IMG/VR virus record: IMGVR_UViG_3300045988_128837 | Coordinates: 23,861 to 87,860 of that record | Source: a virus | Length of the DNA stretch: 64,000 bases | Reading direction: 5' to 3' (one strand) | In this document: piece by piece, positions 30,513 to 34,602 of the stretch | Numbering within the stretch: the stretch's first letter is position 1 | How the letters are laid out: every line of letters begins with the position of its first letter | Made by a program: the position numbers and the translations under genes | Notes under the pieces: generated by a model | The model's database searches: none | What the model was told of the DNA's origin: nothing | Seen by the model: only the letters and a program-made list of their open reading frames with translations

Positions 30513-31247
30513 TTATTTGCGAGCATTTTTCATCTGATCTAATATGGCTTTAGCTTCTTGCTGTCGCTCTTCTTGCTCCATATGATAATCCAATGTTTCT
30601 GCACTAGATTCATACGCAATAGCAACGCCTTTGGATTGTTCGCTAAGTTTCTTTGCTCCTTCTCGAACCTCTTCCAAACCTTCCTGAGCAGCATTTAAAC
30701 TATTGTATTGGTCTAAATTTTTCTGCAATTCTGCAATCTGCTGATCTGCTTCCATCTGGAGAACCACAGTATCTTTTTCACCTTTTAACTTAATGAGCTG
30801 ATCATATGCTTGGTTTTTAATTTCTTCTTGTTTATCTTTTGTTGCTTGCAACTCTGGGATTTTCTTTTCGTACACTGATTTCTGTGCCTTGAGCGTGGCT
30901 AATTTTTGAGCATAATACATTGCTTTTTTATCATCATTGTTATCAATATACTGGTTGATCATTGCCTCGGTTTTAGAAATTTCTTCTTTTGTTTCTTTGA
31001 GGTTATCTTCCATTGTTGCCAATCGACCAGCTACCATTGTGTATGTACCCATTGTTTTCTGGTAGAAATCCTGCTTATCTTTAATTGCAGTATTATATCT
31101 GGCTCTTGCTCCCTCTGGAGTCATTGCATTTTCTTTGATTTTTTCTGTAACTGTTCCAGATGCCACATTTTTAATCTGCTTTCCATTTTTAGTAAATTGT
31201 AAATATGCGATAATCGCTACAATTACACAAATAATAATAATTGTCAT
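30513..31247 (-). CDS. Membrane-anchored coiled-coil protein, PspA/IM30-like.
   Basis: N-terminal TM helix MTIIIICVIVAIIAYL. Long heptad-rich coiled coil resembling PspA/LiaH organisation. Immediately downstream of the flotillin gene. Confidence 0.35.
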   Translation of the reverse strand: MTIIIICVIVAIIAYLQFTKNGKQIKNVASGTVTEKIKENAMTPEGARARYNTAIKDKQDFYQKTMGTYTMVAGRLATMEDNLKETKEEISKTEAMINQYIDNNDDKKAMYYAQKLATLKAQKSVYEKKIPELQATKDKQEEIKNQAYDQLIKLKGEKDTVVLQMEADQQIAELQKNLDQYNSLNAAQEGLEEVREGAKKLSEQSKGVAIAYESSAETLDYHMEQEERQQEAKAILDQMKNARK

Positions 31248-31261
31248 AATAATTTCTCCTA

Positions 31262-32722
31262 TTAGAACTCACGGTAATCTGCTGGCTCTGGTGTTCCAAG
31301 ATTTTCATTATCTGTAGATTCTACTTCTTTATCTTCAGAAACAAAATCTTTTAGCATCTTTGCAAGATCAACACCTGTAGATCCTTTAACACCATCTGAT
31401 ACCTGATTCACAACATTCATAATATCTTTTGTTAATTTTGTTGTGTTTCCTTCTCCATACATAGTGATACTTCCTACATTTCCTAATGGTGCGGCTGCAT
31501 TTTTAACTGCTTCTGGGAACATCTGGCACATCATTTCTACAATAGAAGCTTTACCCATCTGTTTCATAGCTTCTGCTTTCTTTTCGATTGCTTCTGCTTC
31601 AGCAATACCTTTAGCTTTGATTGCCTCGGCTTCTGCTACACCCTTTGCACGAATACCTTCAGCTTCCTGTTCCATAGCATATTTTGTAGATTCAGCTTCT
31701 TTTTCTTTAGCATATTTATTAGCTTCAGATTCTTTCTGTCTCTTGTATAAGTCTGCATCTGCTCTCTGCTGAGAAGCATATTTTTCAGCTTCTGCTTGTT
31801 TCTTAATTTGCGCATCTAATGTCTGCTCTGTTACCTCAACGTCTTTACGCTTCAGTTCAATTTCCTTTTCCTGACGCATAATATTAGCATCCGCAGTTAC
31901 AACTTCAATTTCTTTACGTGATTTTTCTTCCTGAATCTTGTATGCTGCATCTGCCTCAGCCTTCTTTGCTTTTGAAATCTTCTCAAGTTCAGATTTTTTA
32001 ATTTCCAGATTGTTATTCTTTTCTGCGATCGCTGTTTCTGACTCAACCCTTGCATCATTCGCTTCTTTTTCAGCCATTGCTTTTGCTTTTTCAATATCTC
32101 TTTCGCTTTCAGCTCTGGAAATTGCAGCCTTCTTCTGAATTTTAACAACATTATCTACACCAAGATTTTCAATAACATCATTATCATCCATAAAATTCTG
32201 CACATTAAAACTGATGATATCTAATCCCATTGCAGCAAGGTCTGGCTTCGCATTTTCTGTAACAAGCTGTGCAAATTTCTGACGATCAGAAACCATTTCT
32301 TCGAGGCTCATCTTTCCAACGATCTCTCGCATATTACCTTCAAGGACTTCTCTTGCGACCTGTCCAATATCGCCTACTGGCTTATTTAAGAAGTTTTCTG
32401 CTGCAAGTTTTAATCTTTCTGGATTACTGCTAACCTTTACATTGACCGCTGCATCTACATTGATATTGATATAATCTGCTGTAGGCACAGAGCTTGATGT
32501 CTTAACATCAATTGGAATTAACTCAAGATTAAGATGATCTGCTTTTTCAAAGAATGGGATTTTTAACCCTGCCTTACCAATTAATGTCTTAGGTGTCTTT
32601 CTAAGTCCAGAAATAATATAAGCTTTATCTGGACTTGCTTTGACATAACCGCTACCGATAATAGCTCCTACGCCACCTACCGCAATAACCACTGGTACCA
32701 CTGTTCCAATTACTTCAATCAT
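31262..32722 (-). CDS. Flotillin-like SPFH/band-7 protein (FloT/YqiK family).
   Basis: N-terminal TM helix, SPFH domain, long coiled coil with Ala/Glu repeats AEAEAIKAKGIAEAEAIEKKAEAMKQ typical of flotillins. Confidence 0.65.
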   Translation of the reverse strand: MIEVIGTVVPVVIAVGGVGAIIGSGYVKASPDKAYIISGLRKTPKTLIGKAGLKIPFFEKADHLNLELIPIDVKTSSSVPTADYININVDAAVNVKVSSNPERLKLAAENFLNKPVGDIGQVAREVLEGNMREIVGKMSLEEMVSDRQKFAQLVTENAKPDLAAMGLDIISFNVQNFMDDNDVIENLGVDNVVKIQKKAAISRAESERDIEKAKAMAEKEANDARVESETAIAEKNNNLEIKKSELEKISKAKKAEADAAYKIQEEKSRKEIEVVTADANIMRQEKEIELKRKDVEVTEQTLDAQIKKQAEAEKYASQQRADADLYKRQKESEANKYAKEKEAESTKYAMEQEAEGIRAKGVAEAEAIKAKGIAEAEAIEKKAEAMKQMGKASIVEMMCQMFPEAVKNAAAPLGNVGSITMYGEGNTTKLTKDIMNVVNQVSDGVKGSTGVDLAKMLKDFVSEDKEVESTDNENLGTPEPADYREF

Positions 32723-32788: not shown

Positions 32789-33121
32789 CTAAATACATCC
32801 GCCACAAGAATTAGGGCGAAAATCCTCTTCGTTGATTGCCTTGAAAATCTGACGCTGAACATCAATATCTGTTGTAATTTCATCTAACCAATACTTATTA
32901 GACTCAATCCATTCATCTTGTTTCAGTCCGTCATAATATGACTCCCATTCTTCAACCCAACCTTTGAAATACCATCTCTCATATTTCTTATATGTATTCA
33001 TAGGTTCTGTGCGTAAGTCTTCTGGAATCTTATCGGTAACATCTTTGCCATCAACATAAAGCTTCCATTCCCCAATACAGAGTGCAAAACCACGACCTGT
33101 CCATTTTGCTTTAACTTCCAT
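32789..33121 (-). CDS. Hypothetical protein.
   Basis: ORF only. C-terminal CGGC. Confidence 0.35.
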   Translation of the reverse strand: MEVKAKWTGRGFALCIGEWKLYVDGKDVTDKIPEDLRTEPMNTYKKYERWYFKGWVEEWESYYDGLKQDEWIESNKYWLDEITTDIDVQRQIFKAINEEDFRPNSCGGCI

Positions 33122-33141
33122 ATTTAATCATCCTCTTCAAT

Positions 33142-34104
33142 TTAATTTCCTAATGCAATTAATGAATTTCCACATGTAATTCTGTCTGTGTCTTCTTCTT
33201 TCGACGGAACAAATACAATTACATCCCAACCGTCTTTTACAAGTGGTTGTTCAAATTTTTCATATACGTCAAAATCTGTTACGATCTCATATCCTTCGTT
33301 AACTGCTTCAACTGTTTCATGGATAGGAGTAATCTTGACAATGCATTTTTCCTTATCGAAATACTTGTTCATCAAATCTACGTCTAAATTACTTTTGGAT
33401 GTAACAGCAAAATTCAATGTATACTTACGTTTCTTTGGCATTGGCAACCAATCAATAATGCCTCCGATCTCTGTTAAAGATAATGAACATCCTCGAAACA
33501 TTTCATTTCTTTGTTCTTCATTAAGAGTATTGATAGAGAACTGAAGACCAAAGCCATCTTCTCCACCATATTCGAATCCAGTTTTAACCCATTTATGTAA
33601 AAATTCTTTTAAATTATTATTTGCCTTTGGCATCATTGTAGAAATTACTGGATGATATGTGTTGAAATGTATATCACTGTCTGGATCTGCTAACATATGT
33701 GCAATCTGTTTAGCCGAAGCAATTACATTTTGATTAAATGTAGGCTCTCCCATTCTTGCATAATGTACATTTAATCGTTCTCCATGTCTGATTCCTGATA
33801 AAGCAATTCCAGAAGTGATCTCCATCATTAACTCTGGCAACGATGCGTTTCCTTTAAATCCAAGTTTAGGGCAATCACAGAAATTGCAATGCATCGGGCA
33901 ACCTTTCTGTGACGAAACAGTCACAACTAATTTTTCTCTAATATCAACTGGTTTATGTTCAACTTTTTCAATTCGTTTATCATACCCAAGAAAATCTGCC
34001 TTAATGTTGTTTTCCTTGCCATAATCACCAACAAATAAGTATTCCAATGTTAAATCTGTATCGGAGATAATTTCTCCTGTATGTGTGTCTGTAATCTGTC
34101 TCAT
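33142..34104 (-). CDS. Radical SAM enzyme, RlmN/Cfr-like (truncated; lacks the N-terminal domain).
   Basis: CxxxCxxC at SSQKGCPMHCNFCDCPK resembles SSQVGCxxxCxFC of RlmN. MGEPTFN parallels GMGEPL. C-terminal TCGNSL parallels the RlmN ACGQL second catalytic Cys. Confidence 0.45.
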   Translation of the reverse strand: MRQITDTHTGEIISDTDLTLEYLFVGDYGKENNIKADFLGYDKRIEKVEHKPVDIREKLVVTVSSQKGCPMHCNFCDCPKLGFKGNASLPELMMEITSGIALSGIRHGERLNVHYARMGEPTFNQNVIASAKQIAHMLADPDSDIHFNTYHPVISTMMPKANNNLKEFLHKWVKTGFEYGGEDGFGLQFSINTLNEEQRNEMFRGCSLSLTEIGGIIDWLPMPKKRKYTLNFAVTSKSNLDVDLMNKYFDKEKCIVKITPIHETVEAVNEGYEIVTDFDVYEKFEQPLVKDGWDVIVFVPSKEEDTDRITCGNSLIALGN

Positions 34105-34134
34105 TTTCTCTCCTTCCTTTAAATTACTGTTTTA

Positions 34135-34602
34135 TTAATCAAATAATCCATACCCAAAGTGCTGTCTCAGTTCATGATTCCAACTATTAATCGATTCAAC
34201 TTTTCGCTCTTTGACAAGCTTATATCGAAAATCTTTAGGCATAGACAATGCGATAAAATTCATAATAAGTTTTGCACAGTCTTTCCTTTCTTCGATATAA
34301 TACACGCCATCTTCTTTATAGAAATCAACCTCTTTAAAACACCCAGAATTATTTAAAATTTCAAATGCTGTTTCGCTAATTTCTGATTCTTGATACTCTG
34401 TCCAAATCAGTCTCTCACTTCTACAACCAAGACCTAGCCCCGTATAATCTTCATTACAATTAAAACCTACTCCTAGCTTTTTACAGCTGTCTTTATACGC
34501 TTGTCGAATTTTATGAATATCATAGTTACAATCAAATAAAAAACTTTCTGATATTTTATGCCCATCTTCCGACCAGTCGCCTAATTCTAATTTATAAATC
34601 AT
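34135..34602 (-). CDS. Hypothetical protein.
   Basis: ORF only. Confidence 0.35.
   Translation of the reverse strand: MIYKLELGDWSEDGHKISESFLFDCNYDIHKIRQAYKDSCKKLGVGFNCNEDYTGLGLGCRSERLIWTEYQESEISETAFEILNNSGCFKEVDFYKEDGVYYIEERKDCAKLIMNFIALSMPKDFRYKLVKERKVESINSWNHELRQHFGYGLFD

Follow-up and report, generated by a model that had tools for sequence, protein, structure and literature searches.

A radical SAM protein of an RlmN/Cfr sister family in a phage, and its recurrent association with NAD+ salvage genes

The window, by which we mean the whole stretch of 64,000 nucleotides analyzed here (positions 23,861 to 87,860 of the IMG/VR virus record IMGVR_UViG_3300045988_128837), derives from a gut phage and includes an intact gene encoding a 320-amino acid radical S-adenosylmethionine (SAM) protein. 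On sequence grounds this protein is not an RlmN or Cfr ortholog but a member of an uncharacterized sister family. Its gene is a dispensable accessory gene, which in this phage species is an allelic alternative to a nicotinamide adenine dinucleotide (NAD+) salvage cassette. The family is tied recurrently, through operons, gene fusions and alternative alleles, to NAD salvage genes, and the ties extend to isochorismatase-type cysteine hydrolases, a thioredoxin reductase (TrxR)-like flavoprotein, an energy-coupling factor (ECF) S-component and a methylthioadenosine/S-adenosylhomocysteine (MTA/SAH) nucleosidase. We tentatively favor, at slightly below even confidence, the reading that the protein is an active stand-alone radical SAM enzyme of the RlmN/Cfr sister family whose function is tied to NAD+ salvage and not to rRNA.

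Relationship to RlmN and Cfr

The protein matched over its full length the profile of phrog_24834, a family of unknown function (E=3.4e-80; residues 17-316 aligned to positions 21-322 of 336). Its homologs form 6904 clusters at 90% identity and 577 clusters at 50% identity, and at least 497 viral contigs in IMG/VR encode a relative. The gene is thus real and widespread, its similarities being well beyond what chance would give. Family members are typically about 300-330 amino acids long; the window protein, which a first-pass annotation made from the sequence alone had described as truncated, is therefore of native length. Longer relatives exist, and their C- and N-terminal extensions gave no functional clue. 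In plasmid contexts only genuine rlmN genes were found. The family is already catalogued, as a PHROG and under the labels 'radical SAM protein' and '23S rRNA methyltransferase', yet it is uncharacterized.

The comparison with Pfam gave only a sub-threshold match to Radical_SAM. Among the NCBIfam models the best were those of RlmN and Cfr (TIGR00048, NF008396, NF000424 and TIGR04432 were used), with 35.4 bits for the RlmN model against a cutoff of 290, spanning residues 47-134 only, and 23.7 bits for the CfrAB model against a cutoff of 530. When 32 diverse family members were compared, 31 matched the RlmN/Cfr models (best E=2e-22; best match to the CfrAB model, E=8.8e-17), none of them at the cutoff. 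Alignment of the family profile to E. coli RlmN with hhalign gave a probability of 98.7% and E=2.6e-16 and took in the complete catalytic core of RlmN (residues 103-363). The AlphaFold2 model built on the family alignment was confident (pLDDT 85.3, pTM 0.86), with disorder at residues 29-52 only, and its ten top Foldseek matches in the PDB were all RlmN-type radical SAM methyltransferase structures (E values from 1e-11 to 4.5e-9, TM scores of 0.60-0.65), the next folds being LipA and PFL-AE, from E=1.8e-5. Since sequence profiles, hhalign and AlphaFold/Foldseek all agree, the homology to RlmN and Cfr proposed in the first-pass annotation is correct, and these proteins are the nearest known relatives by NCBIfam, PDB phmmer, hhalign and Foldseek. 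Assignment to another radical SAM subgroup was considered and rejected, as QueE, NrdG, viperin and SPL gave marginal matches (E>0.01) and stood at least 6 orders of magnitude behind RlmN in Foldseek.

The translation does contain the three motifs on which the homology had been proposed, SSQKGCPMHCNFC (residues 64-76), RMGEP (residues 117-121) and ITCGNSL (residues 309-315). The first of these aligned to SSQVGCALECKFC of RlmN; among 37 full-length family representatives Cys69 and Cys76 are conserved without exception and Cys73 in 35. Gly119 and Pro121 of the second are invariant or nearly so across the family alignment, and in the methyl-carrier loop that includes the third the cysteine is present in 27 and the glycine in 30 of the 37 representatives. 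In RlmN, Cys355 carries the methyl group and Cys118 resolves the covalent enzyme-substrate adduct, so that the C118A variant traps a protein-RNA crosslink, with which the titles of PDB entries 5hr6 and 5hr7 agree. Only one of these two cysteines has a counterpart here: hhalign placed Cys311 on Cys355, and the position of Cys118 is occupied by Thr62 in the window protein and by I, T, N, A, V or S in the family, with no cysteine in any of the 37 representatives.

The N-terminal domain of RlmN is missing, as had been noted, all alignments beginning at RlmN residue 77-103 or thereabouts. The accessory (RNA-binding) domain of about 90 residues is absent (320 amino acids against 384 in RlmN), and the first 26 residues of the window protein correspond to the RlmN beta-extension. 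What is shared with RlmN (PDB 3rfa, 5hr6) thus comprises the CxxxCxxC cluster in an SSQxGC context, MGEP, the conserved glutamate of the beta-extension (E21 here, E105 in RlmN) and, at the C-terminal end, the Cys-Gly-Gln/Asn loop (C311 here, C355 in RlmN). On the other hand, RlmN is a dual-specificity 23S rRNA m2A2503/tRNA m2A37 methyl synthase whose residues 1 to about 90 the window family lacks, and the core identity of the two is only 16-19%, with the TM scores given above. The window protein differs further in having an extra disordered insert (residues 29-52), in being acidic and in lacking the Cys118 equivalent, and the genomic company of its family consists of NAD salvage genes, amidohydrolase, flavoprotein and importer. 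Cfr, the 23S rRNA m8A2503 methyl synthase known from antibiotic resistance, belongs to the same clade and shows the same differences in architecture and cysteines. Orthology to either enzyme does not hold, with an RlmN score about 10-fold under the curated cutoff and a Cys118 equivalent that is never a cysteine. Four of the phage proteins (P0015, P0037, P0059 and P0065) are labeled '23S rRNA (adenine2503-C2)-methyltransferase' by JGI; because the tests of RlmN membership failed the label is doubtful and, judging from the sequences, probably reflects an over-annotation propagated across virome data.

An RlmN/Cfr-type RNA methylase, modifying C2 or C8 of the adenine at rRNA A2503 or tRNA A37 and so tuning translation or antibiotic sensitivity, had been suggested in the first-pass annotation. 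RlmN and Cfr are indeed nearest by sequence, profile and fold, and the Cys355 equivalent is conserved together with a CG(Q/N) loop; one homolog lies inside the tRNA gene cluster of the T5-like phage BUCTxx99, tRNA genes are found within a few kb of the gene in Arno162, Kehishuvirus and the loci L050 and L051, and a Thg1-like tRNA-repair gene is nearby in 14 loci. We nevertheless consider this reading distinctly unlikely, because the membership tests failed and because fusions exist that it does not explain. The scores are far under the curated cutoffs, the whole N-terminal accessory domain is gone, and the Cys118 equivalent is never a cysteine whereas RlmN C118A traps the covalent enzyme-RNA adduct. 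The protein is acidic (isoelectric point 5.3; 35 Lys+Arg vs 48 Asp+Glu), with a net charge of about -13, and the fusions to ECF importer and amidohydrolase domains and the NAD salvage operons described below would make no sense for an RNA methylase. Methylation of rRNA by this protein is hence unlikely; the proposed modification of A2503 or A37 is unsupported, the protein being acidic and its relatives fused to an importer component and small-molecule hydrolases, and nothing points to a PhLOPSA-type resistance.

A genomic slot with alternative contents

The setting is that of a phage, in agreement with the initial description: among the matches listed, the identical protein was found on IMG/VR viral contigs of 82-170 kb. 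Every gene in the window lies on the same strand, the G+C content is about 0.34, and the genes present include those for a DnaE-type polymerase, RecD2, RecJ, Ant/Bro proteins and recombinases. No GenBank phage was near-identical or closely related to the window at the DNA level. Most of the open reading frames (ORFs) are ORFans, and those scanned included no NAD gene and no 7-deazaguanine gene; they did include genes for an RlaP-type (RNA repair pathway) nucleotidyltransferase, a PcfJ-like protein, a sigma-70 region-2 protein and two nucleoside 2-deoxyribosyltransferase-like proteins. A strong Shine-Dalgarno-like sequence, AAAGGAAGGAGAG, is located directly 5' of the ATG of the radical SAM gene.

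Relatives of the neighboring gene that encodes a 689-amino acid protein were collected (62 loci, mostly of the same phage species at 93-100% identity), and the states of the slot were counted in the 47 genomes that have both flanking genes, coding for proteins of 155 and 110 amino acids. Only three states were found. A 3.7-kb four-gene NAD cassette is present in 31 genomes, the radical SAM gene alone in 11, and in the remaining five the slot is empty, with a gap of 32-74 bp. The cassette codes for a nicotinamidase-like protein, a split Prs-like protein, a NadV-type phosphoribosyltransferase and NadE, the last two scoring above cutoff at 436 and 189 bits, respectively. The junctions are shared, and the exchange follows the gene boundaries cleanly; a cassette-specific k-mer was found in 34 viral contigs, none of which is among the 11 contigs of the radical SAM type. 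It follows that the radical SAM gene is dispensable and, in this species, allelic with the NAD cassette.

In the cassette the frame of the Prs-like gene (a possible Adps) is split into ORFs of 97 and 158 amino acids, for which a pseudogene, a protein in two parts and a sequencing artifact are all conceivable explanations. Compared with the Prs/NadV pair, the cassette has two more genes, the nicotinamidase-like gene and NadE; the papers on the NARP systems introduced below do not describe this combination for NARP1.

Anti-defense genes are typically dispensable and located in variable slots, as this one is, and the gene could be supposed to modify the DNA of the phage or the pool of deoxynucleotides, for instance by C-methylation of adenine in DNA, as a free base or as a nucleotide, evading restriction or other defenses that target nucleic acids. 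The chemistry of the nearest relatives is aimed at C2 or C8 of adenine, the two nucleoside 2-deoxyribosyltransferase-like proteins of the window could install a modified base, and DNA methyltransferase genes are near the radical SAM gene in 9 genome loci. This reading would leave unexplained the chromosomal NrtR-regulated NAD operons, the hydrolase-flavoprotein-radical SAM module of free-living bacteria and the ECF fusions, and the protein has no DNA-binding domain; we consider it very unlikely. We know of no modification of DNA or nucleotides by such adenine C-methylation.

The adjacent large ORFans had been proposed as partners of the enzyme, but none co-occurs with its gene beyond one near-identical phage group. 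Fifteen window neighbors, including the ORFans of 110, 155, 129 and 689 amino acids and an SPFH protein, were compared by tblastn to 79 genome loci and rejected, as no linkage was found, and across 80 viral loci the immediate neighbors accompany the radical SAM gene solely within that group. The 110-amino acid ORFan, which ends in NSCGGCI, is kept in the phage species whatever the content of the slot. Genes for SPFH/Band-7 (flotillin/prohibitin-like) proteins are found within one or two genes of the radical SAM gene in unrelated phages, namely this phage, its relatives with 88-89% identical radical SAM proteins, the crAss-like Kehishuvirus and a T5-like Stenotrophomonas phage. These SPFH proteins are mutually dissimilar, and the next gene after the SPFH gene of the window codes for a PspA/IM30-like coiled-coil protein; no homology was detected between the window and Kehishuvirus in their small proteins or SPFH proteins. 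Elsewhere in the window a patch with a local dip in G+C content looks like a mobile element, with genes for an IS110-family transposase, two tyrosine-recombinase-like proteins and a metallophosphoesterase (Table 1).

NAD-linked company of the relatives

In six related loci of gut Alphaproteobacteria the radical SAM gene is part of a tight operon with the structure PncB (nicotinate phosphoribosyltransferase)-PncA (nicotinamidase)-radical SAM-NadE-DUF5662-NrtR. The radical SAM proteins of these operons are 55-57% identical to that of the window, and the loci are true chromosomes, with RNase E and alanine racemase nearby. Subsets of the operon occur in three further independent lineages (L036, L051 and L075), where PncB, NadE, NrtR or PncA adjoins the radical SAM gene. 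DUF5662, a 165-amino acid protein with the HD-like motif THDLSKF, accompanies PncA/PncB/NadE in bacteria and phages with or without the radical SAM gene (also at L118, L306-L308 and L318) and looks like a second unassigned gene linked to NAD.

Phages show the association in other forms. In Vibrio phages a Prs-like gene is followed by one for a NadV-type phosphoribosyltransferase and then directly by the radical SAM gene, and in phages whose radical SAM protein is 78-89% identical to that of the window NAD genes lie 4-10 kb downstream, the sets consisting of PncA/PncB/NadE/DUF5662, of Prs/NAMPT/NadE, or of an NMNAT-like gene with an ADP-ribose-pyrophosphatase-like Nudix gene. In the group at 88-89% the genes near the radical SAM gene include those for a Thg1-like (tRNA-His guanylyltransferase-like) protein, an E1/ThiF-like protein, an NMNAT-like protein (GRFQTFHKGH) and an ADP-ribose-pyrophosphatase-like Nudix protein. 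In a third subgroup of the family the radical SAM gene is followed by an NMNAT-like gene.

Three pathways of NAD+ reconstitution have been described in phages, NARP1 (Adps and Namat; bioRxiv 10.1101/2024.02.11.579819), NARP2 (NAMPT and NMNAT) and NARP3 (PnuC and a NadR-like protein). The Prs-like/NadV-type pair of the Vibrio phages resembles NARP1 (same preprint). Like these systems, which phages can do without, the radical SAM gene is an NAD+-related accessory module, but it encodes just one enzyme, a radical SAM protein that is not homologous to Adps, Namat, NAMPT, NMNAT, PnuC or NadR, and is only linked to genes of the NARP type, as in the Vibrio phages, or allelic with them, as with the PncA-like/Prs-like/NadV-type/NadE cassette of the window species. 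The NARP1/2 and NARP3 papers mention no radical SAM gene. No PADLOC model of a known or candidate anti-phage defense system matched the window protein, the protein P0219 or the window neighbors. Our literature searches returned nothing relevant on a phage RlmN-like enzyme, on a radical SAM protein with NARP, or on a triad of hydrolase, flavoprotein and radical SAM protein.

This triad is found in a second subgroup, from environmental bacteria, where the radical SAM gene ends a conserved module of three genes. Directly upstream of it is a gene for the TrxR-like flavoprotein in 64 of 80 metagenome loci, and a gene for an isochorismatase-family Asp/Lys/Cys hydrolase lies upstream of the flavoprotein gene in 34-36 of the 49 loci whose flank is long enough. 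Beyond these three genes there is no other conserved neighbor, the flanks varying by locus. As the CxxC disulfide is missing in 56 of 60 copies, the flavoprotein is probably an electron donor and not a thioredoxin reductase.

Association with the hydrolase is also found within single polypeptides, two relatives (P0235 and P0259) being fusions of the radical SAM protein to an isochorismatase-family hydrolase. Other fusions consist of an N-terminal ECF S-component, the radical SAM protein and a C-terminal MTA/SAH nucleosidase (E=1.9e-66). An ECF S-component is fused to four relatives at 35-41% identity; its best Pfam match is QueT, above the gathering threshold in two of the four, and it had no match in the PDB.

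The QueT match of these fusions raises the alternative of a role in the salvage of queuosine precursors, the protein being an analog or relative of QueL or a modifier of a preQ-type base that feeds queuosine in phage tRNA or 7-deazaguanine modification of DNA. QueL, the queuine lyase, is a radical SAM enzyme whose gene stands with those of the ECF S-component QrtT and the nucleosidase QueK (PMC11130926, PMC11477304), which are the same three activities as those of the fusion. In the queK-qrtT-queL operon of C. difficile it processes an imported, salvaged heteroaromatic base, a logic that the fusions mirror, and in two T4-like phages a QueE-like gene and FolE are 4-5 kb from the homolog. Unlike for QueL, no preQ1 or other riboswitch adjoins the radical SAM gene in the 32 loci scanned, no QueK-, QrtT- or TGT-like neighbor appeared in de novo neighbor clustering, and the QueT-like domain is distant and present in fusions only. 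The fused nucleosidase is moreover of the MTA/SAH type and not an IU-type nucleoside hydrolase, and 7-deazaguanine genes are absent from the window. From its listing in InterPro under the generic IPR006638 only, QueL seems to be of a different radical SAM subgroup and not RlmN/Cfr-like. Taken together, we find a role in queuosine salvage scarcely probable.

Several observations weigh against a function in NAD+ salvage. The window itself has no NAD gene, and a NAD gene was present in the fetched flank of only 9 of 88 lineages of the first subfamily, a figure that comes with no background rate since the 689-amino acid neighbor, taken as a control, returned essentially one phage species. The mutual exclusivity of the slot contents could merely reflect a recombination hot spot sampled from few clonal lineages, and another phage lineage shows just two states of the equivalent slot, the radical SAM gene (11 genomes) or nothing (two). 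The importer fusion matches the QueT (queuosine precursor) family and not a known niacin transporter, and the hydrolase of the second subgroup, a cysteine hydrolase of generic type, cannot clearly be called a nicotinamidase and has no PncB or NadE nearby. FolE or a QueE-like gene is a few kb away in the two T4-like phages already mentioned, the radical SAM gene lies among tRNA genes in some phages, and Cys311 is missing in about a quarter of the representatives.

It could thus be argued that the association is coincidental, the gene being unrelated cargo in the recombination hot spots of large phages, which gather auxiliary metabolic genes as well, with its real role elsewhere, for example on a host protein or another cofactor. 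About 90% of the lineages of the first subfamily have no NAD gene in the flank, the contexts in isolated phages are heterogeneous (ParB, TerC/TerD, tRNAs, structural genes), the surroundings of the slot are a mosaic with many patterns of presence and absence, and the SPFH genes recur nearby without explanation. Against coincidence stand the independent forms that the link takes, including fusions, adjacency in the Vibrio phages and the three-state slot, as well as tight operons under a NAD-specific regulator in at least four cellular lineages and the involvement of six different NAD enzymes. A coincidence seems to us rather unlikely. The linkage to NAD consists of several independent kinds of association, yet it remains guilt by association.

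Table 1. Coordinates of the radical SAM gene, its motifs, the slot that it occupies and other features discussed in the text.
Feature	Sequence	Position	Strand	Description	Basis
Radical SAM gene	Window	33142..34104	minus	Intact, ATG start, 320 aa; minimal-core radical SAM enzyme, RlmN/Cfr sister family (phrog_24834)	ORF listing and homology
CxxxCxxC motif	Window	33877..33915	minus	Residues 64-76, SSQKGCPMHCNFC; Cys69/73/76 for the [4Fe-4S]/SAM cluster, then family-specific Asp77	
Thr62	Window	33919..33921	minus	Position aligned with RlmN Cys118 (resolving cysteine)	Pairwise and hhalign alignments
RMGEP	Window	33742..33756	minus	Residues 117-121; SAM-binding 'GGE-type' motif common to RlmN (MGMGEP)	
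TCGNSL	Window	33160..33177	minus	Residues 310-315; Cys311-Gly312 vs RlmN Cys355-Gly356 (ACGQL), methyl-carrier loop	hhalign
Glu21	Window	34042..34044	minus	Near-invariant; aligned with RlmN Glu105 in the beta-extension ahead of the core	
Left slot junction	Window	34105..34134	minus	Includes the ribosome-binding site AAAGGAAGGAGAG of the radical SAM gene	Sister genomes have this sequence ahead of the NAD cassette or of the 110-aa gene
Right slot junction	Window	33122..33141	minus	…GGATGATTAAAT ahead of the ATG of the 110-aa gene	Common to NAD-cassette genomes
Upstream slot flank	Window	34135..34602	minus	155-aa ORFan, phrog_20092; conserved, no partner of the enzyme	
Downstream slot flank	Window	32789..33121	minus	110-aa ORFan, phrog_20678; conserved, no partner of the enzyme	
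SPFH/Band-7 genes	Window	31262-32722 (and 30513-31247)		Recurrence near the radical SAM gene	
SPFH/Band-7 genes	L111; L007; L002	10991-11866; 3296-4513; 9027-9872		Recurrence near the radical SAM gene	
Mobile element-like patch	Window	40001-46135		G+C dip to 0.288 at 40001-42000	
IS110-family transposase	Window	43025-44311		In the patch	
Tyrosine-recombinase-like	Window	40620-41648; 45185-46135		In the patch	
Metallophosphoesterase	Window	44442-45188		In the patch	
Split Prs-like frame	L262	13612-13905; 13972-14448		NAD cassette	
DUF5662	L026	7723-8220		165 aa	
Thg1-like, E1/ThiF-like, NMNAT-like and Nudix genes	L112; L114	8224-9012, 420-1103, 18460-19026; 14482-15072		Phage group at 88-89%	
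Hydrolase-flavoprotein-radical SAM module	L182-L261	e.g. L204 6468-7133, L260 2607-3497		Second subgroup	

Proposed reaction and meaning for the family

The importer fusion and the amidohydrolase partners suggest that the enzyme acts on a small heteroaromatic compound obtained by salvage or import. This compound would belong to the NAD pathway, such as nicotinamide or nicotinate or a NAD-derived nucleotide. We infer that the acidic isoelectric point and the lack of an RNA-binding domain also favor a small molecule. The chemistry would probably be like that of RlmN: SAM would methylate Cys311, the 5'-deoxyadenosyl radical would generate a Cys-S-CH2 radical that adds to an sp2 carbon, and a base other than cysteine would resolve the adduct. 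The flavoprotein would probably be the source of electrons for the cluster, and the nucleosidase would probably clear SAH and 5'-deoxyadenosine. Both the Cys311 loop and the MTA/SAH nucleosidase fusion are compatible with RlmN-type chemistry, which yields these two products, although the argument from the nucleosidase is weak since every radical SAM enzyme makes 5'-deoxyadenosine. As Cys311 is missing in part of the family, methyl-carrier chemistry may not be universal. In the phage, the enzyme would help to maintain or shield the pool of usable NAD+ while the host is infected, taking the place of a full cassette for NAD salvage or reconstitution.

A bolder version, possible but on balance doubtful, is that the family performs an unrecognized radical SAM step in NAD+ biology, in which an RlmN-type enzyme would act on nicotinamide or nicotinate, NAD+ or a NAD-derived nucleotide, for example by C-methylating the pyridine or adenine ring or by converting an unusable derivative. 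It would be NrtR-controlled in gut bacteria, and in phages it would serve as a one-gene alternative to NARP cassettes against NAD+-depleting immunity.

For virome studies a practical consequence is that phage genes labeled '23S rRNA (adenine2503-C2)-methyltransferase' should not be counted as Cfr-like resistance determinants, because the labels are probably wrong. To our knowledge RlmN and Cfr, which both have RNA as their substrate, are the only enzymes of their radical SAM class to have been characterized. Here a large sister family has neither the RNA-binding domain nor the resolving cysteine, and the genes that accompany it point to small-molecule metabolism of NAD+. If this reading is true, 'methyl synthase' chemistry would be extended to a metabolite and an unknown reaction would be added to the NAD salvage of anaerobic gut bacteria. 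NAD+-depleting defenses are an active field, and as far as we know NARP1-3 are the only established routes by which phages reconstitute NAD+; the family could reveal another way in which phages cope with such defenses. There is a realistic chance that a new NAD+ reaction or a new phage counter-defense route is hidden in it.

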